Source of the DNA: Acidobacteriota bacterium
GTDB lineage: Bacteria; Acidobacteriota; UBA6911; RPQK01; JAJDTT01
Assembly: GCA_965263035.1 (NCBI GenBank)
Contig: OZ253580.1
Coordinates: 5,888,001-5,952,000 of the forward strand
Length of the DNA: 64,000 nucleotides
Direction of reading: 5' to 3'
Positions 5,529 through 15,691 of this stretch are shown piece after piece (the stretch's first letter is position 1; the number at the start of each line of letters is the position of its first letter). Position numbers and translations under genes: made by a program. Under the pieces are notes generated by a model, which was not told the origin of the DNA, made no database searches, and saw only the letters and a program-made list of their open reading frames with translations.

Positions 5529-6986
5529 ATGCAGGTTCTGGATTGGCTGCTGACGAACACGACGACGGTCTCGGGTTGGATCTGGGGTCTACCCATGATC
5601 GTGCTCCTCTTCGGTACCGGGATCCTCCTGACCGGGATGACCCGTTTTGTCCAGATTCGTCATCTGGCCAGCTCCATCCGGCAGATCTTGAAGGGACCCA
5701 AGGCCGAGACCCGGGACCACCGGCGGTCCCAGGGGGATATCACCCCGTTTCAGGCCCTGATGACCGCGTTGTCGGCGACTGTGGGCAATGGAAACATCGC
5801 CGGCGTCGCGACGGCCATTGCGGCCGGCGGTCCGGGAGCCGCCTTCTGGATGTGGATCACCGCTGTCTTCGGAATGGCCACCAAGTACTCGGAAGCGGTT
5901 CTGGCCATCCTCTTCCGCCGGCGCATGCGGGACGGAACCATGGCCGGCGGGCCCATGTACTACTGTCGAGACGGCGTCAGGGGGCGCCTGGGTTTCGTCT
6001 TGGGGGGCATATTCGCCGTGTGCGGTGCGGCGACCGCCCTTTTTGGAACGGGAAACATGTTCCAGTCCCAGTCCATGGCCATGGCCGTCCGGGAGCAGTT
6101 CGGAACTCCTCAATGGGTGACCGGTCTGATCATGAGCCTGTTGGTCGGCTTGGTGATCATCGGCGGAATACGCCGGATCGGAGCCGTGGCCGAGCGTCTG
6201 GTCCCGGTGATGATCATTTTCTACTTTTCCGGAGCGTTGCTGGTGATCGTCAGCAACATCTCGCTGGTCCCGGACGCCTTCCGGCTGATCGTCGTCTCCG
6301 CCTTCAGTCCTCAGGCGGTCTTTGGGGGAAGCGTGGGCATCGGAGTTCAGCAGGCGATGCGATTCGGAGTGGCTCGCGGCGTCCTCTCCAACGAGTCCGG
6401 TCTGGGCAGTGCGGCCATCGCCCATGGGGCTGCCCGGACTCGATTCCCCGTCGTCCAGGGTGGCATCGCCATGATGGGCACCTTCATCGACACCATCATC
6501 GTTTGCACGCTCACGGCTCTGGCCATTACCGTCTCCGGCGCCTACCGCAGTGCTTCCTTCCTGGTGGAGGACGGTCTCCTGGGGGCCGATCTCACCGTGC
6601 ACGCTTTCAGCGTGGGCATGCCCGATTGGACCGGAGGATGGGGAGGACTGGTCGTCGCCTTCGCCTCCCTGGTCTTCGGGTTCACTACGCTGGTCGGTTG
6701 GAGCTATTACGGTCAGATCTGCTGCGAGTATCTCTTCGGCCTGAAAGTCGTCAAGCCGTACCGGATCCTCTTCGTGGTGCTCCTGTTCGCGGGAGCGCTG
6801 CTCACCGGGCGCTATTCCTCGATCATCACCAACGTGGGGGACATCTGTAACGCCGCAATGGCGTTTCCCAATCTCATCGCGCTGATCTTCCTGAGCCGCC
6901 GGGTCGCGGACGTCACTCGGAAAACCTACGAGGCGGGAGATCCCTACGCGGCTCGCGTGCCCCGGCTGCCTGATCCTATCGGTTAG
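5529..6986 (+). CDS. Sodium:alanine/glycine symporter (AgcS/AlsT family)
   Basis: ALSATVGNGNIAGVA.AI..GGPGA.FWMW, GGPMYY, RGVLSNESGLGSA.IAH, FIDTIIVCT. Confidence 0.92.
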   Translation: MQVLDWLLTNTTTVSGWIWGLPMIVLLFGTGILLTGMTRFVQIRHLASSIRQILKGPKAETRDHRRSQGDITPFQALMTALSATVGNGNIAGVATAIAAGGPGAAFWMWITAVFGMATKYSEAVLAILFRRRMRDGTMAGGPMYYCRDGVRGRLGFVLGGIFAVCGAATALFGTGNMFQSQSMAMAVREQFGTPQWVTGLIMSLLVGLVIIGGIRRIGAVAERLVPVMIIFYFSGALLVIVSNISLVPDAFRLIVVSAFSPQAVFGGSVGIGVQQAMRFGVARGVLSNESGLGSAAIAHGAARTRFPVVQGGIAMMGTFIDTIIVCTLTALAITVSGAYRSASFLVEDGLLGADLTVHAFSVGMPDWTGGWGGLVVAFASLVFGFTTLVGWSYYGQICCEYLFGLKVVKPYRILFVVLLFAGALLTGRYSSIITNVGDICNAAMAFPNLIALIFLSRRVADVTRKTYEAGDPYAARVPRLPDPIG

Positions 6987-7031
6987 TTTCCGGAAGGTGG
7001 ATACACGGGGAGTATCCGGATTCGAGCGACG

Positions 7032-7970
7032 TCACGGGGAAGCGGACCGGTCGGACGCTCGGGGCGGGAGTCCCGCCGCCTCTACGATTTCGGCCACCAA
7101 TTCTTCCTGCCGATAGGCCATGACGTGGACTCCGCTGATCCCGGGAATCTCCCGGGCCTCGCGAATGATCTCGACACAAATCTGCATGCCCTCGCGGCGC
7201 TGCCGGTTACCGGGAACTCCCTTGAGACGGCGGATCACCTCGTCCGGGATCACCACGCCAGGGACGTTGGTCCGGATCCATTCGGCCGCCTTGGCCGATC
7301 GTAGCGGGCCGACACCCAACAGGAAGAAGACCTTCTCGTGCAAGCCCAACTCTCGCGTCGACTTCATGAATTGGCGGAGTCTGGACATGTCAAAGCAGTA
7401 CTGGCTCTGAATGAAATCCGCTCCCGCCTCGATCTTCTTCAGCAGCCGGAAGGGACGATAATCGAAGGGGGGAGCGAAGGGATTGCTGGCCGCCCCGAGA
7501 AAAATCCGGGGGTTGGATTCCAGCTTCCTGCCGCTCAGGAAGCGGCCCTCGTCCCGGAGCAGGCAGGCCGTTCTCAAAAGATTCATGCAATCCAGATCGA
7601 AGACCGGCTTGGCGTCCGGATGGTCGCCCACGCCCACGCCGTCGCCCGTCAGGCACAGCACGTTCCGGATCCCCAGTGCGGCGGCTCCCAGCAGGTCTCC
7701 CTGAATGGCGATCCGGTTCCGGTCCCGGCAGGCGACCTGAAGCACCGGCTCGTAGCCCGCCTTCACCAGCAAGGAACAGACGGCCACGCTGGACATGTGG
7801 ACATGGGCGCCGGAAGCATCCGTGGCGTTGATGGCATCACACACCGGGGCCAGGACCAGCGCCCTTTCGTAGACCGAATTCGGGTCTGCGGTGTCGGGGG
7901 AATTGATCTCGGCGGTGACGGCGAATCCGCCCGAGCGAAGTACCCGCTCCAGCCTGGAGCCGGACTTCAT
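7032..7970 (-). CDS. metF: Methylenetetrahydrofolate reductase MetF
   Basis: FAVTAE, DAINATD, CRDRNRIAIQGDLLGA, LCLTGD, KIEAGADFIQSQ. Start taken at MKSGSRL. Confidence 0.93.
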   Translation of the reverse strand: MKSGSRLERVLRSGGFAVTAEINSPDTADPNSVYERALVLAPVCDAINATDASGAHVHMSSVAVCSLLVKAGYEPVLQVACRDRNRIAIQGDLLGAAALGIRNVLCLTGDGVGVGDHPDAKPVFDLDCMNLLRTACLLRDEGRFLSGRKLESNPRIFLGAASNPFAPPFDYRPFRLLKKIEAGADFIQSQYCFDMSRLRQFMKSTRELGLHEKVFFLLGVGPLRSAKAAEWIRTNVPGVVIPDEVIRRLKGVPGNRQRREGMQICVEIIREAREIPGISGVHVMAYRQEELVAEIVEAAGLPPRASDRSASP

Positions 7971-7975
7971 GGGGT

Positions 7976-8428
7976 TCACTGCTTCCAATGGGATCCCGCG
8001 TTTCCGGCGTCCGAGAAGTGGTTGACCCAGGCGGACGATCCCTGGCGGTCGTGACTCAGCGGAGGAAGCACGTGGAGGATCTCGGACCCAAAATGGGGCA
8101 TCTTTCTGGATCGTTCCCAAGCCTGCACCCAGACGCACGGCATCTCGGGAACCACCTCGCAATGTCCGTTCGGCCGCACCCCGCCACAGGGGCCGTTGCG
8201 GAGATTCTTGGGACAGGTCATGGGACAGGTCATCCCGGTGCTGTGCAGGACGCACTGTCCGCACATGCGACAGTCGAACACGGCGCCTTTGGTCAATCGC
8301 TCCGCCGGAATCAGGAGCCGTTCGATCCGGCTCCCGGGTTTGAGCGACGACCGGAACCAACCAAGAATTTTTAGACTAATCAGATAGATCGACTCCAATA
8401 CCTGAGGATGGTTCTGAAGGAATCTCAC
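7976..8428 (-). CDS. metV: MetV-type MTHFR small subunit (Cys-rich Fe-S/Zn domain)
   Basis: CRMCGQC...CPMTCPKNLRNGPCGG...CEV...CVW, adjacent to metF. GTG start inferred. Confidence 0.85.
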   Translation of the reverse strand: MRFLQNHPQVLESIYLISLKILGWFRSSLKPGSRIERLLIPAERLTKGAVFDCRMCGQCVLHSTGMTCPMTCPKNLRNGPCGGVRPNGHCEVVPEMPCVWVQAWERSRKMPHFGSEILHVLPPLSHDRQGSSAWVNHFSDAGNAGSHWKQ

Positions 8429-8447
8429 AGTTTTCCCCTGCGCTTGT

Positions 8448-10085
8448 TCAGCCTGTCGGACCCGAATCCAGTACCGCCGGCATGGCCTTGAACAGACATC
8501 CTTCCACAAAAATATCGAAGAAGTCTTCGGTCGTCTCCAACTCGATGTGTTCAATACGCCTGACCATCTCCTCGATGCGACGCCTGAGGGTCCGGCTGGT
8601 CAACATGAGTGTGGCTCCCTCAAGCGCGCTGTTTCCCACCTTGGCTACGCGGCCTTGGGGAAGCGGGGGGATGAACCCGATGGACATGGCGTTGTCCACG
8701 TTGACGTAGTTGGCGAAGCCTCCCGCCAGATAGAGCCGCTTGAGCTGGACCGGCGAGACCCCGTACTTCCTCAGAACGATCCACTGACCCGAGTAGTTGG
8801 CGGCCTTGGCCTGGGCCAGCGCGCTGATATCGGCTCGGGAGAGGAAAATCCCGCGTTCGCCCGGAATGGTGAAGCGGTCCAGCCCGCCTGCAAGAACACC
8901 GAGATAGTTCATGTCCTCGGTCCGGAGCAACTCTGCCAGGAGGTCGATCAAGCCCGAACCGCAGATCCCCTCCGGCGCGGCTCCACCGATGGTCTTCCAA
9001 ATCACCGCTCCGTTCCGGAGTTCGACCGACTCGATGGCGCCTTCGTAGCCGGGCATGCCATAGGTGATCTCGCCCCCCTCGAAGGCCGGTCCGGCGGGGC
9101 AAGAGGCGGCCATCATGCCATGGCGATTGCCGACCACCACTTCCGTGTTGGTTCCCACATCCACCAACATGACCACGTCTTCTTCCTCATCCATGCCGAC
9201 GGCAAGAAGGTCGGCGGCCACGTCGGCGCCGACATGGGAACCGATCAGCGGCCCCCCGTAAACGTTGGCGCCAGGGTGGACCCTGAGTCCCAGATCCCGA
9301 GCCTGGAAATTCAGGACAGTGTCGGCCCTTTCGCCCCGTTCCATTTCCAGTTGGGTGCTGGACTGGTACGGTTTCTCGCCGATGGACTGGATGTCGAGAC
9401 CGAAAAACAGGTCCCGCATGGCAGCGTTGCCCACGATCACGACCTCGTAGATCTGGCGCCGTGGAACCCCCGCCATCCGACGCAGTTCGCGGATCTCATA
9501 GTTGAGTCCGGCAATCACCGAGTTCTGAAGCTCCCCGTGAAAAGATCCACCGTCATAGGAAATCCGGCGCATGATGTCGCTGCCGCCGAATCTCTGCGGA
9601 TTTTCGAACGAACCGGTGTACAGGATGCCTCCGCTTCGCAGATCCACCAGATTGAAGGCGATGGTCGTCGTCCCCAGGTCCACGGCAAGGCCGTAGATCC
9701 CCCCCCGATAGGAGTCGATGACGTTGCCGTCATAGACGACATCGGTTCCCTGAAGCCGAGTCATTGGCTCGATGGGAGCTTGGCGGCGAACGGCTTGGGT
9801 AAGGATCCTGGGACGGCGGCGCAACAGGGCAAATTCAATGTTGGCGTTCGCGTCCAGAACCCGCGCTTGACAGGCAAGCCGATAGTCGTCGCGAAGAAAC
9901 TGCTCGGCCTCGGTGCCTGGGGTCAGTGCTTCCCCGCCCCGGAGGATCTGGACAATACACTCGTGACACTCGCCACTACGGCGACAGGAGGTGGGGACCC
10001 GCACCCGAAGGTCGTCGGCATAGTCGAAAACGGTCTTGCCGGGCACAAGATCCAGCTTGCGATTACCGTAATTGAGGGGCGACAT
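8448..10085 (-). CDS. ATP-dependent reductive activator of corrinoid proteins (RACo/RamA-like; 2Fe-2S + ASKHA)
   Basis: N-terminal C...ECHEC...RLACQA, DLGTTT, DVGTNTE, AGPAFEGG, GICGSGLID, YLAGGF, GNSALEGA. Confidence 0.92.
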   Translation of the reverse strand: MSPLNYGNRKLDLVPGKTVFDYADDLRVRVPTSCRRSGECHECIVQILRGGEALTPGTEAEQFLRDDYRLACQARVLDANANIEFALLRRRPRILTQAVRRQAPIEPMTRLQGTDVVYDGNVIDSYRGGIYGLAVDLGTTTIAFNLVDLRSGGILYTGSFENPQRFGGSDIMRRISYDGGSFHGELQNSVIAGLNYEIRELRRMAGVPRRQIYEVVIVGNAAMRDLFFGLDIQSIGEKPYQSSTQLEMERGERADTVLNFQARDLGLRVHPGANVYGGPLIGSHVGADVAADLLAVGMDEEEDVVMLVDVGTNTEVVVGNRHGMMAASCPAGPAFEGGEITYGMPGYEGAIESVELRNGAVIWKTIGGAAPEGICGSGLIDLLAELLRTEDMNYLGVLAGGLDRFTIPGERGIFLSRADISALAQAKAANYSGQWIVLRKYGVSPVQLKRLYLAGGFANYVNVDNAMSIGFIPPLPQGRVAKVGNSALEGATLMLTSRTLRRRIEEMVRRIEHIELETTEDFFDIFVEGCLFKAMPAVLDSGPTG

Positions 10086-10198
10086 GAAAGCGCGCTCCCA
10101 ACGCCAGCGACCCACCGGGGCGATTGCAAGTACGTCTAGTGAAAGTGGTCACGGAATCCGGTCAGCTCACAGCCCGCGGCAAACGCCGTGCCGGAAGG

Positions 10199-10465
10199 CT
10201 AAGCTTCCCAGGCATCCCGATAATCCAGATCGTCACTTCCGGTACAGAGTGGCAACCCTGCAGAACCATGACGCCTGGACTGGTTTCGACACCCGAAACG
10301 GGCGGTGCAGCAATCTTGGGCATTCTTGTAGGGACACCGCCACTTGGATACGAGATTGGCGTTTTCGCCGATCTGCCGGTAGATCTCCCAAAGGCGATCC
10401 AGACTGGCCTTGAGTTTGGCCTTGTCAACAGGTTGGAAGTTCCCGGGGGCGTCTGTTCGCGGCAC
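10199..10465 (-). CDS. Small Cys-rich hypothetical protein inside the methyl-transfer operon
   Basis: WRCPYKNAQDCCTARFGCRNQ...LPLC..DDLDYR.AWE fills the gap between the corrinoid and RACo genes. Start uncertain. Confidence 0.6.
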   Translation of the reverse strand: MPRTDAPGNFQPVDKAKLKASLDRLWEIYRQIGENANLVSKWRCPYKNAQDCCTARFGCRNQSRRHGSAGLPLCTGSDDLDYRDAWEA

Positions 10466-10490
10466 TGGACTATATCCGACGAGGAGTATC

Positions 10491-11258
10491 TTAAGGGTAT
10501 TCGGAGGCGGCTTGCTGCGGCGCTTTCTGCCCGACACCCAGGAGTTCCTTGGCCTTTTCCACACAGTCAATGGCGTCCTTGCCATAACGGTCGGCCCCCA
10601 TGTCGTCCGCGAACTCCTGAGTCACGGGAGCTCCACCCACCATCGTGCTGACGACATCTGTCAGACCCGCATCTTCCAAGGCCTGGATGGTTCTTCCCAT
10701 GTTGGGCATGGTCGTCGTCAGCAGGGCGGACATTCCGACGACCTGGGGCTCGTATTCGAATACCGAATCGACAAACTCGTCCGGCTTGGTATCGACACCC
10801 AGATCATGCACGACGAAACCGGCTCCCCGGAGCATCATGATGCACAGATTCTTTCCGATATCGTGGAGATCTCCCTTGACGGTTCCCATGACCACGGTGC
10901 CCATGGGTGGAATATCGGAAGCGGACAGTATGGGCTCGATATGCTTCATCCCGGCCTTCATGGCGCGGGCTGAAATCAGAACCTCGGGAACGAAAATGAT
11001 GTTGTCCCGGAATTTGATCCCGACCAGAGCCATTCCGGCAATCAGTCCGTCATCCAGCAGCGTGTTGGCGGCGTAACCGGTGTCCAGAGCCTCCCTGGTC
11101 AGGCGGTCGACTTCATGCTGGTTACCCACGATCAAGGCATAGCTGATGTTTTGCATCAAAGGATCGGCGTTCCGAAAGAGCGACTTGATGTGCTCTCGCT
11201 CGTGCCGGCGCGCAACGTGGCGGAGTTCCCTTGTCAGGCCCTCGTTAATATTAGACAT
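10491..11258 (-). CDS. Methyltransferase corrinoid (B12-binding) protein
   Basis: Cap domain GLIAGM..VG.KF...IFVPEVL, plus B12 motif GTVKGDLHDIGKNL...SALLTTTM...VGGAPV. Confidence 0.95.
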   Translation of the reverse strand: MSNINEGLTRELRHVARRHEREHIKSLFRNADPLMQNISYALIVGNQHEVDRLTREALDTGYAANTLLDDGLIAGMALVGIKFRDNIIFVPEVLISARAMKAGMKHIEPILSASDIPPMGTVVMGTVKGDLHDIGKNLCIMMLRGAGFVVHDLGVDTKPDEFVDSVFEYEPQVVGMSALLTTTMPNMGRTIQALEDAGLTDVVSTMVGGAPVTQEFADDMGADRYGKDAIDCVEKAKELLGVGQKAPQQAASEYP

Positions 11259-11382
11259 GCTGGAATTGCAGCCAGATCAACTAATTTGACAGACGCCAAG
11301 ACGACTTAAGAGAGAAATTAAACCTTTTCGGGTCGAGGTTTGTCAAACCGGACGGCGGACGGGACAGGGCTCTGAGAAAGCT

Positions 11383-12429
11383 TTACGCCCCGCTCAACCT
11401 CCCAGCCCGCCACGCCTGGATGTAGTTCATGCAGAAATCGTCCCGGCCCAAAAGCATGTCCCGAGCCAACCCGACTTTCTCCGAATTCAGGTCCAGGGCG
11501 AAGACGTCCTGCACGCGATTCTGGACAGGATCCATGATGGCGGCATCGATGCCGACTTCCAGACTCAGGTGAATGAAGGTCGCGTTGATGAGCTTCCGAT
11601 TGGGAAGGCCGAAGGAGACATTGCTCAACCCGCCGGTGACGTGGACCTCGTTTCCGAAGATTCTCCGCACCTCCCTTACCGCATCCAGAAAATGATGTCC
11701 GTAATCGGGGGAGACCGAAATCGGAAAGACCAGACAGTCGATGTACACATCGTCCAGAGCGAATCCTTGCCTCACGACCGCCTCCATGACCTGTTCCACG
11801 TTGGAAATCCGGTCGTCCGCGTCTTCCGGCATTCCCTCTTTCCCGGCGGCCGTCACAATCATGCGTGCATTGTTTTCCTGAACCAGATCCAGGGTTTCCA
11901 ACCGCTCCAGAGCCACGGAATTGACCAGAGGGCGGTGCGATCTGCGGGTGTGGGCTGCCAACCCCGCCGCGATGATCTCCGAATTTGAAGAATCGATGCT
12001 GAGCGGCAACGCCGTCATCTCCTGGACTTGTTGCACGAGCCAAGTCATGGCTCGCTTCTGAACACCGAGATCATAGGAGACCTCGTCCACGTTCAGATCA
12101 AGGAAATGGGCTCCGGTGGCTTCCTGGCGCCGGACCTCGAACTCGATGTAGGCGGTCCCCTCCGCCTCCTCTGCCGGATCGCCGCCGAGTCCCTTCTGGA
12201 CCGCAATCATGAAATGCTTGATTTGACCTTGCTCGTAGGGCTGCGTCTTCTTGAAACTCTCCGGCACCCGGAGATACCGGCGGTCACCCGGACTGGGATC
12301 GAAGAAGACGGCTTCCGCTCCGTCGGGCGCCGTCGCAGTCCGCTTGCCATTACGCAAGACGATGCGAGTCGTATGAATGTTCTCTCCGATGATGATCAGA
12401 CCGCCGGGTTCATGGATGAGCTTTGACAT
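11383..12429 (-). CDS. Pterin-binding methyl-THF:corrinoid methyltransferase (AcsE-like)
   Basis: IIIGENI, GAHFLDLN, LSIDSS, LVNSV, YIDCLVFPI, GGLSNVSFGLP.R..IN, AIMDP. Confidence 0.88.
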   Translation of the reverse strand: MSKLIHEPGGLIIIGENIHTTRIVLRNGKRTATAPDGAEAVFFDPSPGDRRYLRVPESFKKTQPYEQGQIKHFMIAVQKGLGGDPAEEAEGTAYIEFEVRRQEATGAHFLDLNVDEVSYDLGVQKRAMTWLVQQVQEMTALPLSIDSSNSEIIAAGLAAHTRRSHRPLVNSVALERLETLDLVQENNARMIVTAAGKEGMPEDADDRISNVEQVMEAVVRQGFALDDVYIDCLVFPISVSPDYGHHFLDAVREVRRIFGNEVHVTGGLSNVSFGLPNRKLINATFIHLSLEVGIDAAIMDPVQNRVQDVFALDLNSEKVGLARDMLLGRDDFCMNYIQAWRAGRLSGA

Positions 12430-12449
12430 GGAACACCCGGTTGGCGCCT

Positions 12450-13487
12450 TCAGGCGTAGTGATCCCGGCACCAGTCCTTGACCGCCCGTGGAATCTCGAT
12501 GAGGTTTTCCAGTTTGGTAGCCAGGGGAATGGCACACTCAGGGGAAATCATATCGACGCCCGCCGCCATGCATTCGTTGACGGCCGCTCGGACCTCCTCC
12601 GGCCCTCGGCTATAGAGGAGTTCCGGGTTGTTCAGATTCCCCACCAGGCGTATCCGTCCGGCAGCGATCTTCATGGCATCGGCAGGGTTGTTTTTGGAGT
12701 CGAAGTGGAAACAAGCCATTCCGGATTGAGCGATATAGTCCAGGCGATCCAACGTCTGGCCGCAGATATGGAGAATGAGCGGACACGGGATTCGCTCGCA
12801 CATCTCCTTGTGGATCTCCAACAGGAATCTACGATAGTACTCACCGCTCACCAGATCTCCGGTGGCGTGATCCGGAAAGGTCAGGGCATCGGCGCCCGCT
12901 TCGATCTGGGCCAGGGAAAAAGCAACCGAGATTTCCTTGAGCCGATCCAGACAGAGCATGGTCATCCCTGGGTCATCAATGCTCATGAGCAGAAACTTCT
13001 CCACGCCGAAGACATGATAGGCTAATGTCCAAGGCCCCATGGCTTTGCCGATGACGGCCACCTCGTCACCGTATTCCTTCTTCAGGATCCGGAGCGACTC
13101 CAGGACGCAGACATTGTCCGGATGGGTCAGGAAATCCTTCGGCATATGGATGTCGTCCGGCCCCGACCAGATCGGGTTGTTCATCCGTACCGTGGGCCAG
13201 TTGTCCTTGATCTCCCACTGCATGTCACATCCCAGGGCGGAAGACTCCTGGATGATGGTGAACACCGGCATGATGCAATCAAAGCCCAACTGGGTGTATC
13301 CCGTTGCCGCCAAGCGCGCGTTGAGTTCGGCGTCACGGCACGCGTCCGGAAACGGTGCGTCCACCATGTCCATGAGTTCCACGGTGGCGATATTGGTCGG
13401 ATTGCACACCGGGGGCCGATCCACCGGCTTGCCGGCCAGCGCGTTCATCACTCGCTCTCTGGGGGTCATGGTCTCCACGAATGGCAT
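12450..13487 (-). CDS. MtaA/CmuA-family (URO-D fold) Zn-dependent methylcobamide methyltransferase
   Basis: MTPRERV..AL.G.PVDRPP, GPWTLA, ILHICG (HxC), GNLN, SPECAI...LEN. Confidence 0.88.
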   Translation of the reverse strand: MPFVETMTPRERVMNALAGKPVDRPPVCNPTNIATVELMDMVDAPFPDACRDAELNARLAATGYTQLGFDCIMPVFTIIQESSALGCDMQWEIKDNWPTVRMNNPIWSGPDDIHMPKDFLTHPDNVCVLESLRILKKEYGDEVAVIGKAMGPWTLAYHVFGVEKFLLMSIDDPGMTMLCLDRLKEISVAFSLAQIEAGADALTFPDHATGDLVSGEYYRRFLLEIHKEMCERIPCPLILHICGQTLDRLDYIAQSGMACFHFDSKNNPADAMKIAAGRIRLVGNLNNPELLYSRGPEEVRAAVNECMAAGVDMISPECAIPLATKLENLIEIPRAVKDWCRDHYA

Positions 13488-13505
13488 TCCATCTGCTCCT
13501 TGGGA

Positions 13506-14180
13506 TCAGAGAGGGCTGAAGCCCGCGGTTCCGGTGGTGAGCTGACCTCTTTGGGCCGAACTCTCCAACATGTTCTCCACGGCGCTGATGTTGCGGGAGA
13601 AGGGGAACAGGAGCCGGACCAACGGCTCGTGACGGTGTCCACAGTTGAAGGAGACACCGAGGTTTCCCGCCTGCTCCATCTCGCCGTACTTTCGAAAGCC
13701 CATCGTAATGGCACGCAGGCGAAAAGGAGCGTTACGCGCCTCGCCCTGAGCCGAGACCTGGTAGACCCAACGATTCTCGGAGTGGTGAGGCGTGAGCTTC
13801 AAAGTCAATGGACTACGGGTATCCCGAAGCACCATCTCGCCCGTGGCGTGTGAATAATTCGGATCCTTTTCCACCGCTTGCGGCATCAGAAACTTGAGCG
13901 GTCTCGAATGAAGTACTCCACAGGGAAATCGAACCTGGTTCCTGCTGCCCTCTACGGCAACCAAGCCACCCAAATTGCAAAGTTGGTCTCGGATTCTTTC
14001 GATCCGGTCCTCGACCCCCGCCTTCTTGCCGTAGGTCCAGACGGTCAACAGACCGTCTTTCTCGTATAGACCGACGGTAATGTCGTGGAAATGCGGGTCC
14101 ATGGAAACCAGTTCGACGCAGCGCCCGTAGCGCTCGATCATCTCCTCCACCTGGGAAAGCTGACCTTCCCTACCCTTCAT
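13506..14180 (-). CDS. Hypothetical protein within the methyl-transfer operon
   Basis: 224-aa ORF, ATGA-coupled to the upstream gene and 18 bp from the downstream methyltransferase. No motif recognised. Confidence 0.75.
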   Translation of the reverse strand: MKGREGQLSQVEEMIERYGRCVELVSMDPHFHDITVGLYEKDGLLTVWTYGKKAGVEDRIERIRDQLCNLGGLVAVEGSRNQVRFPCGVLHSRPLKFLMPQAVEKDPNYSHATGEMVLRDTRSPLTLKLTPHHSENRWVYQVSAQGEARNAPFRLRAITMGFRKYGEMEQAGNLGVSFNCGHRHEPLVRLLFPFSRNISAVENMLESSAQRGQLTTGTAGFSPL

Positions 14181-14554
14181 GGCGAATTGCTCCCGGATGT
14201 TGCAGGACCCGGATCGTCACAGATCCAGCGCTCAAGTGCGCCAGGCCGCTCATCCCGCTGACCAGCACGGTGGAGCCGACAAATCCGGGCCGCCAAGTCC
14301 TCAGGAAGTCCTTGATTGAATCGACCCGCCCAAGCTTGGGCAAGCTGGCGTGGATCTCCCGAGTCCTGACCCTGATCCACCCACTCCCACCCCTCCAAAT
14401 AGGCATCGCTCCCCATGCTCCCTTCGAACATGGCAACGGCGTCCACCGCTTCCTGGAACCGGTGGTCCAGCGGTTCCGAAAATCGATCGCCACCGGATTC
14501 GACCTGTACCTGGACGGGGATCTCTTTCCAGTAGAGGACTCTGATTCTGGCCAC
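14177..14554 (-). CDS. Virulence_fact (PF13769-like) domain protein, first gene of the operon
   Basis: ARIRVLYWKEIPVQV...RFQEAVDAVAM..G..GSDAYLEGW matches my recollection of this family. GTG start follows a GGGAG SD. Confidence 0.72.
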   Translation of the reverse strand: MARIRVLYWKEIPVQVQVESGGDRFSEPLDHRFQEAVDAVAMFEGSMGSDAYLEGWEWVDQGQDSGDPRQLAQAWAGRFNQGLPEDLAARICRLHRAGQRDERPGALERWICDDPGPATSGSNSP

Positions 14555-14693
14555 GATTTGGACTCCCACGAGAGGCGATCCAGCCTGGACTACCGTCAGA
14601 ACCGGATCTACGGGACGTCTCCCCTTGCCAAGTCGGTTTCGGCGACCATTCCTCGGGGGGCGAAGGTGACCTGCTCCGTCCCACGGGAAAGTC

Positions 14694-14722
14694 AGGCTAC
14701 ACCAGCGTGGACACCCTGTAAA
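14694..14722 (-). promoter_or_regulatory. Putative sigma70 promoter of the methyl-transfer operon
   Basis: Minus strand TTTACA-17 bp-TAGCCT, about 140 nt upstream of the first GTG. Confidence 0.45.
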
Positions 14723-14797
14723 GCCCGCCGGCGCCGGATACTCCCGGCCATGTGGCTGGTGCTGCGCGGTCCTTTCACCGACTCCGATACGCCTTTC

Positions 14798-14827
14798 TTG
14801 ACTTGGTCGGAGCCACTTCCGCAAAAT
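14798..14827 (+). promoter_or_regulatory. Putative sigma70 promoter of xdhC (leaderless arrangement)
   Basis: TTGACT-18 bp-CAAAAT, then 6 nt to ATG 14834, with no SD. Confidence 0.4.
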
Positions 14828-14833
14828 GTCGTC

Positions 14834-15691
14834 ATGGATGTCTACGAGGAAATTGTCCGGCTCCGGCGTGAAGGACGTTCGGGCGCAGTGGCCACCATTG
14901 TCCGGCGCCTTGGGAGCACTCCCCGGAAAGACCATGCCAAGATGCTGGTCCGCCAGGATGGAAGCTTCGTGGGCACCGTCGGCGGCGGCTGTGTCGAAGC
15001 CGAAGTCTGGCGCCATGCCAACCAGGTCATGGAATCGGGCCGGGCCACACTGGTCAAATATGAATTGACCCAGGAAGATACGGAAAACGAGGGCTTGGTC
15101 TGCGGCGGAACCGTGGAGATATTCATCGAGCCCGTGATTCCCGAGCCCACGTTGATTCTCATGGGAGCCGGACACTTGGGGCAGGCCATCGCCGCGGCTG
15201 CCGACAAGGTCGGTTTTCAGGTCGTAGTCCTGGATGACCGGGAGGCTTTCTCCAATCGCCAACGATTTCCCCGCGCCCGGGAGGTGATCGTAGACTCCTT
15301 CCGGACGGGTCTCTCCCAGACATCGGTGACTATCAACACCTTCATCCTGGTCATCACTCGGGGTCACAGCCACGACCACGCCGCAATGGAACAGGCCATT
15401 CAGACCGAGGCCCGATACGTGGGACTGGTGGGCAGTCGCCGAAAGATCCAGCTGATCGTCGATAGCCTTCTGCAACAGGGATATCCGCCCGATCTGTTCG
15501 AGAACCTCTATGCTCCCATTGGACTGGCCATCGGATCTGAGACTCCGGAAGAGATCGCAATCAGCGTCGTCGGTGAACTGATCGCCATCCGCAAGGGCGT
15601 GCATGAGCGGAACCGAAAACAACGTTTCGTTCGGAAAATCCTGGAGCGCGCAAGAACAAAGCAAGCTCCAGCCCAGGTTGCTGCCGGCTAG
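14834..15691 (+). CDS. xdhC: XdhC/CoxI-family molybdenum cofactor maturation factor
   Basis: ATIV...GSTPR...AKM, GTVGGGCVE, GLVCGG.VEIFIEP, GAGH, DDRE, TRGH.HD, YVGLVGSRRK, PIGL.IGSETPEEIA. Confidence 0.92.
   Translation: MDVYEEIVRLRREGRSGAVATIVRRLGSTPRKDHAKMLVRQDGSFVGTVGGGCVEAEVWRHANQVMESGRATLVKYELTQEDTENEGLVCGGTVEIFIEPVIPEPTLILMGAGHLGQAIAAAADKVGFQVVVLDDREAFSNRQRFPRAREVIVDSFRTGLSQTSVTINTFILVITRGHSHDHAAMEQAIQTEARYVGLVGSRRKIQLIVDSLLQQGYPPDLFENLYAPIGLAIGSETPEEIAISVVGELIAIRKGVHERNRKQRFVRKILERARTKQAPAQVAAG

Follow-up and report, generated by a model that had tools for sequence, protein, structure and literature searches.

A candidate split-MetH-type corrinoid methyl-transfer operon with an uncharacterised MtaA-like input module in an Acidobacteriota bacterium

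What is the function, in a bacterium, of an operon that encodes a methanogen-type methyltransferase together with a corrinoid protein, a corrinoid activase, and a folate branch? The question is raised by nine genes on a 64,000-nucleotide stretch (the window; positions 5,888,001 to 5,952,000 of contig OZ253580.1) from an Acidobacteriota bacterium, the window belonging to one 6.2-Mb contig and the genome being 97% complete. We propose that the operon is a split-MetH-type corrinoid methyl-transfer hub with an extra, uncharacterised input module formed by an MtaA-like enzyme and a 224-amino-acid protein (unk224), a composite reading for which we see the case as evenly poised; within it, we consider that the operon probably serves methionine synthesis, as the organism's methionine-synthase hub. 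An earlier, sequence-only reading had described a self-contained module that moves methyl groups between an unnamed substrate and the folate pool: a methyl-transfer module with an MtaA-type enzyme it is, but the genome inventory does not bear out its catabolic self-containment, and the role in methionine synthesis had been missed.

The open-reading-frame (ORF) list, Pfam, and NCBIfam define nine co-oriented, closely packed ORFs at positions 7032-14554 of the window, given here from the first gene of the operon to the last:

14177..14554, minus strand: VF, a small Virulence_fact (PF13769) protein of about 125 amino acids (Pfam, 57.6 bits), the first gene of the operon

13506..14180, minus strand: unk224, 224 amino acids, with no Pfam or NCBIfam match

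12450..13487, minus strand: MtaA/CmuA-family corrinoid methyltransferase with the URO-D fold (PF01208, 228 bits; TIGR01463 mtaA_cmuA, 266.5 bits)

11383..12429, minus strand: pterin-binding methyltransferase of the methyl-tetrahydrofolate (methyl-THF):corrinoid type, like AcsE, MtgD, and the MetH pterin module (Pterin_bind, 78 bits)

10491..11258, minus strand: stand-alone corrinoid protein with B12 cap and B12-binding domains and a DxHxxG motif (Pfam B12-binding and B12-binding_2)

10199..10465, minus strand: small 4-Cys protein, 88 amino acids, with no Pfam or NCBIfam family

8448..10115, minus strand: RACo/RamA-type ATP-dependent reductive activase (RACo_C_ter, 223 bits; Raco_middle, 134 bits; Fer2, 34 bits)

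7976..8428, minus strand: MetV, Cys-rich subunit of the methylenetetrahydrofolate reductase (MTHFR) C-terminal type (DUF5981; PF12225, 94.8 bits)

7032..7970, minus strand: MetF, methylenetetrahydrofolate reductase of the MetVF/YitJ-C type (MTHFR, 104.9 bits; PRK08645 C-terminal half, 207.7 bits)

By ORF, Pfam, and NCBIfam analysis, all genes named in the sequence-only reading were recovered, on the minus strand, at the positions it had assigned to them; its count of eight becomes nine, the number that its own list names. The motifs it had quoted are seen in the translations: the corrinoid protein has DLHDIG, and the MtaA-like protein has GDLVSGE, CPLILHICG, and QSGMACFHFD. Family assignments agree with the architecture it had described, that is, a substrate methyltransferase (methyltransferase 1; MT1), corrinoid protein, pterin methyltransferase, RACo, and MetVF, and NCBIfam places the substrate-facing enzyme, as it had said, in the URO-D-type MtaA/CmuA subfamily and not in MttB.

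The inventory of the genome bears directly on what the operon is for. MTHFR (PF02219) has a single match in the 6.2-Mb genome, the operon MetF, and Pterin_bind has two, FolP and the operon methyltransferase (207 bits against PRK07535, cut-off 259), with no long ORF carrying the domain. The best NCBIfam model for the corrinoid protein is MtgC_2 (195.9 bits, cut-off 370). When the genome was searched with the operon proteins (tblastn), the corrinoid protein, RACo, the pterin methyltransferase, MetV, and MetF each proved to lack a paralogue; there are three B12-binding matches (the operon corrinoid protein, a 147-amino-acid frame, and a 512-amino-acid frame), and the operon corrinoid protein is the only one in the sense of tblastn, the cap domain and identity of the other two frames not having been examined. 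The MetH activation domain Met_synt_B12 has no match in the 97%-complete genome, and there is likewise no genome match to acetyl-CoA synthase (AcsB/CdhC; PF03598), MttB (PF06253), or DUF1638; acsB and metH, which the sequence-only reading had left to a genome search, are thus both missing. The genome has four matches to S-methyl_trans, all outside the window, and AcsB/CdhC is unmatched genome-wide, in agreement with the earlier statement that the window holds neither carbon monoxide dehydrogenase/acetyl-CoA synthase nor a homocysteine-binding domain. The best S-methyl_trans ORF (C1:6072102-6073121; 339 amino acids; stand-alone; 171 kb from the operon) scores 225 bits against PF02574 and 259.6 bits against a BHMT/MtgE-like NCBIfam model (cut-off 338), and is 57-67% identical to the homocysteine methyltransferases that are linked to the cluster in Dehalococcoidia loci. 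Because the genome is without MetH, because its sole MTHFR, pterin methyltransferase, corrinoid protein, and RACo are those of the operon, and because an MtgE-like gene is present elsewhere, the operon is most simply read as the methionine hub. Self-containment is, by the same token, a misleading description: the operon holds the genome's only MTHFR and only non-FolP pterin methyltransferase, there is no MetH, and the MtgE-like gene lies 171 kb away.

The methionine role is proposed by analogy, the closest known systems appearing to be the split MetH of Phaeobacter and its extension in Ruegeria. Phaeobacter inhibens has a three-part split MetH and a RamA-like protein (PMC5764234), and Ruegeria pomeroyi has MtgB, MtgC, MtgD, MtgE, RamA, a DUF1638 protein, and MetF2, in which MtgD is bidirectional and MtgC is shared: MtgC and MtgD serve both methionine synthesis (with MtgE) and glycine betaine demethylation (with MtgB), and mtgC and mtgD are required for methionine prototrophy (PMC12478193). 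The operon resembles these systems in having a stand-alone corrinoid protein, a pterin methyltransferase beside a dedicated MetF, a RamA/RACo activase, a separate homocysteine methyltransferase in place of canonical MetH, and an extra substrate-specific methyltransferase that would share the corrinoid protein. It differs from the Ruegeria system in that the extra methyltransferase is of the MtaA/URO-D type and accompanied by unk224, whereas that of Ruegeria is the MttB-type MtgB, and in that it has no DUF1638, has a MetVF-type MetF, a detached 4-Cys module, and VF, has a corrinoid protein that scores under the MtgC cut-off, and comes from an uncultured bacterium.

According to the mechanism that we propose, MetVF would interconvert methylene-THF and methyl-THF, the pterin methyltransferase would move methyl groups in either direction between THF and the Co(I) corrinoid protein, the distant homocysteine methyltransferase would take methyl groups from the corrinoid protein to make methionine, and RACo would re-reduce Co(II). 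The MtaA-like protein and unk224 would be a putative two-protein, donor-side MT1 that transfers methyl groups from a candidate methyl-sulfur, methyl-selenium, or methyl-halide donor to the same corrinoid protein, from which they could pass to homocysteine or, via THF and MetVF, to the one-carbon pool. The pair would fill the role that the MttB-type MtgB fills in Ruegeria.

How constant is this arrangement? Among species-representative genomes, 258 stretches encode an MtaA-like relative, of which the best 80 loci were used. By their record titles, all 80 come from metagenome-assembled genomes (MAGs), with no cultured carrier seen, and the carriers belong to Acidobacteriota, Vicinamibacterales, Bryobacterales, Poribacteria, Latescibacterota, Dehalococcoidia, Gemmatimonadota, and Opitutales. 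By tblastn, homologues of unk224 and of the MtaA-like protein are present in 80 of the 80 loci, of the corrinoid protein in 50, of the small Cys protein in 48, of RACo in 47, of VF in 34, of MetF in 24, of the pterin methyltransferase in 23, and of MetV in 22; clustering of all ORFs identifies a PF02574 homocysteine methyltransferase in the cluster in 24 of the 80. The gene for unk224, which the sequence-only reading had listed without a role, accompanies the MtaA-like gene invariably: every one of the 80 loci has it upstream, on the same strand, with an alignment gap of 15-867 nt (median 56 nt) that exceeds 300 nt in five loci. One of these five, in a Dehalococcoidia MAG (L047:7217-7985), has a DUF433/DUF5615 pair, which looks like a toxin-antitoxin pair, between the two genes.

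The acceptor module beside the pair varies, being either a pterin methyltransferase, usually with MetVF, or a homocysteine methyltransferase. Where a corrinoid protein is present (50 loci), the homocysteine methyltransferase accompanies it in 22 and the pterin methyltransferase in 23; a single locus has both. Six loci show neither within the stretch, and for two of these a stand-alone pterin methyltransferase lies 1-2 kb past the end of the locus. In Bryobacterales-type loci MetV is fused to MetF (541 amino acids in L037). The same nine genes in the same order, with 78-98% protein identity, occur in six related assemblies (L013-L018), so the arrangement of the operon is not a matter of chance. 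The implication of the sequence-only reading that the cluster is conserved as a unit holds for this nine-gene order in L013-L018 but does not hold elsewhere, where the pair occurs with a homocysteine methyltransferase (24 of 80) or alone. We conclude that the invariant unit is unk224 with the MtaA-like gene, that the corrinoid protein and RACo are frequent companions, and that the third module alternates.

The occurrence of the pair is patchy. An unk224 profile matches 14 of 401 sampled genomes of the window's phylum, all in two families (6 of 6 and 7 of 7), and the MtaA-like proteins of Dehalococcoidia (L047, L054, L085, L087) are 81-82% identical to that of the window, compared with 70-72% for those of Vicinamibacterales (L027, L029, L034). 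Because occurrence is confined to two families and the Dehalococcoidia copies are closer than the Vicinamibacterales copies of the same phylum, comparison of the sequences suggests that the pair has spread horizontally between phyla.

If the pair is an input module, then methyl groups should enter the corrinoid protein through it, and the genomes of relatives bear on this direction. We analysed 30 relatives' genomes, mostly single-chromosome assemblies. A stand-alone corrinoid protein is encoded in 30 of 30, and a MetH-like ORF of 1189-1309 amino acids in 24 of 30. Five of the six genomes without a MetH-like ORF carry a stand-alone pterin methyltransferase, the sixth having only a weak match of 44.6 bits; conversely, all 21 genomes without a stand-alone pterin methyltransferase carry a full-length MetH-like ORF. 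MetH and the stand-alone pterin methyltransferase are therefore distributed in complementary fashion in the 30 relatives. MttB does not exceed its cut-off in any of 31 genomes (the 30 relatives and the window's own). Thus, in clusters that consist of a homocysteine methyltransferase, unk224, the MtaA-like protein, the corrinoid protein, and RACo, the MtaA-like pair is the only evident methyl donor: it is because these clusters show no other donor, MttB and the pterin methyltransferase being absent, that we place the pair on the donor side.

Several points weigh against this assignment and against the hub as a whole. First, the donor argument covers only MttB and pterin methyltransferases, with no search made for the MtaB, MtmB, or MtbB families. 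Second, the characterised MtaA and MtbA act on the acceptor side, moving methyl groups from methyl-corrinoid to a thiol, so that the closest enzyme of solved structure speaks for transfer the other way. Third, in Poribacteria-type loci the pair has no corrinoid protein within 8 kb. Fourth, one of 28 unk224 members (L036) lacks four conserved Cys/His positions, which makes a catalytic metal site in unk224 doubtful. Fifth, the genome has five MetE-C-terminal-like, 'core methionine synthase'-like ORFs of 347-383 amino acids (C1 5747283-5748323, 5252952-5254037, 4089644-4090711, 5347294-5348442, and 1904212-1905273), which all score under curated NCBIfam cut-offs and could be real methionine synthases; if these proteins use a methyl-corrinoid donor, the sole corrinoid protein available to them is that of the operon.

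The second of these points leads to a reading that we consider rather unlikely, but that has the most in its favour among the alternatives: that the pair works on the acceptor side, moving methyl groups from a methyl-corrinoid protein fed by MetVF to a thiol, sulfide, or selenide, as a biosynthetic or detoxifying S/Se-methylation branch beside methionine synthesis. The closest solved relative is the methylcobalamin:CoM methyltransferase MtaA, NCBIfam places the protein in the MtaA/CmuA subfamily, its His-Cys-Cys site is of the thiolate-activating zinc type, and methyl-THF supply, pterin methyltransferase, and corrinoid protein are all encoded alongside. Against it, 22 of the 50 corrinoid-bearing loci have a homocysteine methyltransferase, and the nine searched genomes of that kind (G006, G009, G010, G014-G017, G029, and G030) have neither a stand-alone pterin methyltransferase nor MttB, so that an acceptor-side pair would leave two acceptors and no donor. 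Moreover, MtsA, MtpA, CmuA, and Sdm/Mlp2 are donor-side members of the family, and donor-side action of members of the same family is described in PMC10418091.

We consider it distinctly unlikely that the operon is what the sequence-only reading took it for, a purely catabolic, self-contained demethylase in which methyl groups pass from substrate to corrinoid to THF and are oxidised through MetF, with no role in methionine synthesis. The set of MT1, corrinoid protein, pterin methyltransferase, activase, and MetF matches that of known demethylases and of the cmu pathway, and in relatives G003-G005 the same operon exists alongside full-length MetH. Against this, the window's genome has no MetH, no other MTHFR, and no other methyltransferase that uses methyl-THF, so that methyl-THF would have no other known outlet or source; it has an MtgE-like homocysteine methyltransferase with no MetH to which it could belong; and of the six relatives in which no MetH-like ORF occurs, five have the stand-alone pterin methyltransferase.

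A further question, for the donor-side hub, is the identity of the methyl donor. The MtaA-like protein exceeds the TIGR01463 cut-off (266.5 vs. 235.4 bits) but falls under the equivalog cut-offs (MtaA_Meth, 225.3 vs. 400 bits; MtbA, 200.9 vs. 600 bits), and its nearest solved relative is Methanosarcina MtaA (PDB 4ay7; 167 bits). An alignment of 28 homologues (mean column identity, 83%) shows zinc ligands His240, Cys242, and Cys318 unchanged in all 28, and these residues align with the His and Cys of LHICG and the third Cys of 4ay7. CmuA has a halide substrate, and a methyl halide may accordingly stand alongside the candidates that the zinc site suggests. According to Kountz and Balskus (PMC10418091), UroD-type S-methyltransferases retain His-Cys-Cys, O-demethylases have carboxylate or non-ligand residues at one or both Cys positions, and MtaA-like Mlp proteins are linked to methyl-selenide use. 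Because His-Cys-Cys is invariant, this criterion favours an S or Se methyl compound as candidate substrate over O-demethylation, which the aligned residues disfavour. Of the candidates in the sequence-only reading, methylated sulfur compounds are thus favoured by the zinc site and methyl halides are compatible with it, and no single substrate can be named. The MtaA-like protein has 4612 matches, and identity is no lower than 74% among the best 120 listed. A divergent third URO-D paralogue (C1:4754693-4755844, corresponding to L112:5690-6844; 384 amino acids; 51 bits against the MtaA/CmuA model) was dropped as a part of the system: its neighbours are SDR, SMP-30/gluconolactonase, and unknown genes, and no corrinoid gene is nearby.

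A more specific form of the proposal is that the pair is a new two-protein, cobalamin-dependent methyltransferase for methyl sulfides in marine bacteria that are non-methanogenic and largely aerobic, an enzyme that would pass methyl groups of dimethyl sulfide (DMS), methanethiol, or related thioethers or sulfonium compounds to homocysteine or THF, with unk224 as a specificity or product-handling subunit; as a whole, we regard this as improbable. A cobalamin-dependent 'DMS methyltransferase' of aerobic bacteria was, by the account given in PMC6548844, proposed in 1993 and unidentified in 2019. The pair is a weak candidate for it, being of the right chemical type with no specific tie to DMS. A route from DMS to methanethiol to methanethiol oxidase finds no support in the distribution of that oxidase (SBP56), which exceeds its cut-off in 5 of 31 carrier genomes and is absent from the window's own. 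A different, weak lead comes from 2-oxoacid reductases of two unrelated families that occur in or next to the cluster: loci of the Acidobacteriota and Vicinamibacterales types have 2-Hacid_dh, and 11 loci have PanE/ApbA upstream of the homocysteine methyltransferase (L040, L052, L057, L060, L061, L063, L064, L074, L076, L084, and L088). A GntR/FCD regulator is divergent in 10 further loci, and the other loci listed for D-2-hydroxyacid dehydrogenase or GntR/FCD are L019-L023, L025, L027, L029, L031, L034, and L044. Reductases and regulators may hint at a 2-hydroxy or 2-oxo carboxylate that bears a methyl-heteroatom group as candidate substrate.

Finally, the suggestion that the pair is itself the homocysteine methyltransferase, making the operon a complete methionine synthase without a PF02574 module, draws on the zinc-thiolate chemistry common to MtaA, MetE, and the MetH homocysteine module, on the absence of a PF02574 gene from the operon, and on the 83% mean column identity of the MtaA-like protein, as for a housekeeping enzyme, but is very improbable, since 24 of 80 loci have a PF02574 gene in the same cluster, full-length MetH coexists in most relatives' genomes searched, and unk224, occurring in 14 of 401 sampled genomes of the phylum, is not a general housekeeping solution.

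Comparison with other characterised systems helps to delimit the proposed hub. Methanogen MtaA (4ay7) and MtbA share with the MtaA-like protein the fold, the TIGR01463 subfamily, and the aligned His-x-Cys...Cys; the present enzyme differs in being bacterial, in falling under the equivalog cut-offs, and in always being paired with unk224, for which the methanogen enzymes have no recognised counterpart beside them. The carrier lineages are not known to make coenzyme M. The cmu pathway of Methylobacterium comprises CmuA, CmuB, and MetF2, CmuA being a fusion of methyltransferase and corrinoid domains; the operon resembles it in its MtaA-like methyltransferase, corrinoid module, pterin methyltransferase, and dedicated MetF, and in belonging to a bacterium that lacks the Wood-Ljungdahl pathway. 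It is not the cmu pathway: the methyltransferase (12450-13487) and the corrinoid protein (10491-11258) are encoded apart, the gene for the pterin methyltransferase separating them. A tblastn search for CmuA-like sequences on plasmids (72,556 records) gave 38 matching records, of which the 25 listed are all at most 29% identical, with none annotated cmuA. The O-demethylases of acetogens and Desulfitobacterium are similar in combining MT1, a corrinoid protein, a pterin-type methyltransferase 2, and a RACo-type activase; an O-demethylase MT1 of the URO-D type is disfavoured here by the zinc-site criterion of PMC10418091, His-Cys-Cys being invariant. A Wood-Ljungdahl methyl branch (AcsE/CoFeSP/ACS) is ruled out, the genome being without AcsB. 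Type 1 mlp clusters, as presented in PMC10418091, are similar in combining a bacterial MtaA-like His-Cys-Cys methyltransferase with a corrinoid protein and an activase of the Ram/RACE kind, and both they and the operon are proposed for methyl-S/methyl-Se metabolism; they have two to three Mlp paralogues, Mlp2 and Mlp3 at least, and no THF methyltransferase, and are found in obligate anaerobes that are mostly Firmicutes. The operon has a single URO-D gene and includes a pterin methyltransferase, so it does not qualify as a type 1 mlp cluster, and clusters of the present type differ from mlp clusters in having a pterin or homocysteine methyltransferase and unk224.

What kind of protein is the invariant partner? 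Pfam has no match in any of 28 unk224 members. The AlphaFold2 model (pLDDT 88.3) has two tandem beta-beta-beta-alpha-beta-alpha units, each half with a mostly conserved FPCGxxH, and a C-terminal tail that is conserved and disordered; on this model, unk224 is predicted to be a tandem duplicated alpha/beta domain. Structure comparison gives a best VIA-align Z of 6.1, over half of the model. Foldseek returned no PDB match at E<=1e-3, a sequence-profile search of the PDB none at E<=1, and a search of the ESM Atlas no usable match. Identity with DUF1638, the additional component in Ruegeria, was rejected (hhalign probability 1.9%). Few proteins belong to the family: 332 representatives at E<=1e-3 in a set of 1.84 billion. 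Its members are mostly stand-alone proteins of about 200-250 amino acids, the remainder being mainly shorter fragments; one 345-amino-acid member continues into a URO-D N-terminus. Our literature search found no paper on the unk224/MtaA-like pair and none on PF13769.

The two other small proteins of the operon differ in how far they can be placed. The AlphaFold2 model of VF (pLDDT 88.5) has a best structural match of Z 3.0 among 48,161 PDB representatives, a search for longer fused forms found none, and a relation to unk224 was rejected (hhalign probability 0.2%) despite a similar-looking order of secondary structure. The small Cys protein has four invariant Cys, in RCPYKN..C..FGCRNQ..C (16 homologues aligned), and a segment that resembles it opens a reading frame of 632-695 amino acids in 12 loci; in the one of these that was scanned (L040), Fer2, Raco_middle, and RACo_C_ter follow the segment. 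Because a homologous segment is fused to RACo in relatives, we read the small 4-Cys protein as a detached N-terminal, metal-binding module of RACo.

The layout of the operon is compact. Comparison with relatives places the likely starts at GTG 14554 for VF, ATG 14180 for unk224, ATG 12429 for the pterin methyltransferase, GTG 10465 for the small protein, GTG 8428 for MetV, and ATG 7970 for MetF; from VF to MetF the intergenic gaps are -4, 18, 20, 124, 25, 83, 19, and 5 nt, and the VF stop and the unk224 start overlap in ATGA. In eight RNA runs of two studies, one of them labelled sponge metagenome, 0.66-0.94 of the sampled words of the 2.1-kb MtaA-like/unk224/VF stretch are present. Metatranscriptome contigs of two studies cover the operon, one contig corresponding to 8024-14680, with the caveat that DNA may be present in RNA libraries. 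Both studies supply a contig that ends at 14680, about 125 nt upstream of VF, and another contig of the first study runs past this position; the shared end is a weak hint that 14680 is the 5' end of a transcript. With Rfam at gathering thresholds, the 64-kb window shows neither a riboswitch nor any other RNA; we also found no inverted repeat in 14500-14900 and no minus-strand promoter-like site in 6800-15000.

The neighbouring genes lie on the plus strand:

14828-15691 (approximate), plus strand: XdhC-family maturation factor (XdhC_CoxI and XdhC_C; NF045664, 291 bits, cut-off 350), divergent from the operon; syntenic in L013-L018 and also in L024, L026, and L030

15709-16895, plus strand: two overlapping ORFs (HTH_32/HTH_23 and DDE_3), about 1 kb past the operon's upstream neighbour, that look like an IS630-type transposase split by a frameshift; a comparable HTH_32 and DDE_3 pair lies near the unk224/MtaA pair in Poribacteria locus L050

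5430-6986, plus strand: sodium:alanine symporter family gene, convergent with MetF; syntenic only in the closest relatives, L013-L018

A hub built on a split MetH has precedent; the pair of unk224 and the MtaA-like protein is without a studied counterpart. If the proposal is true, many uncultured marine bacteria make methionine, and possibly feed the one-carbon pool, via a modular B12 hub, the input enzyme of which is of the methanogen type and has an obligatory, never-studied partner. With the methyl donor identified, the marine cycling of methyl-sulfur, methyl-selenium, or methyl-halide compounds would gain a route, functions would be provided for unk224 and PF13769, two families for which no fold relative was found, and the 2025 finding that methionine synthesis and methyl catabolism share a corrinoid protein would be extended to new phyla and to a new class of donor enzyme.

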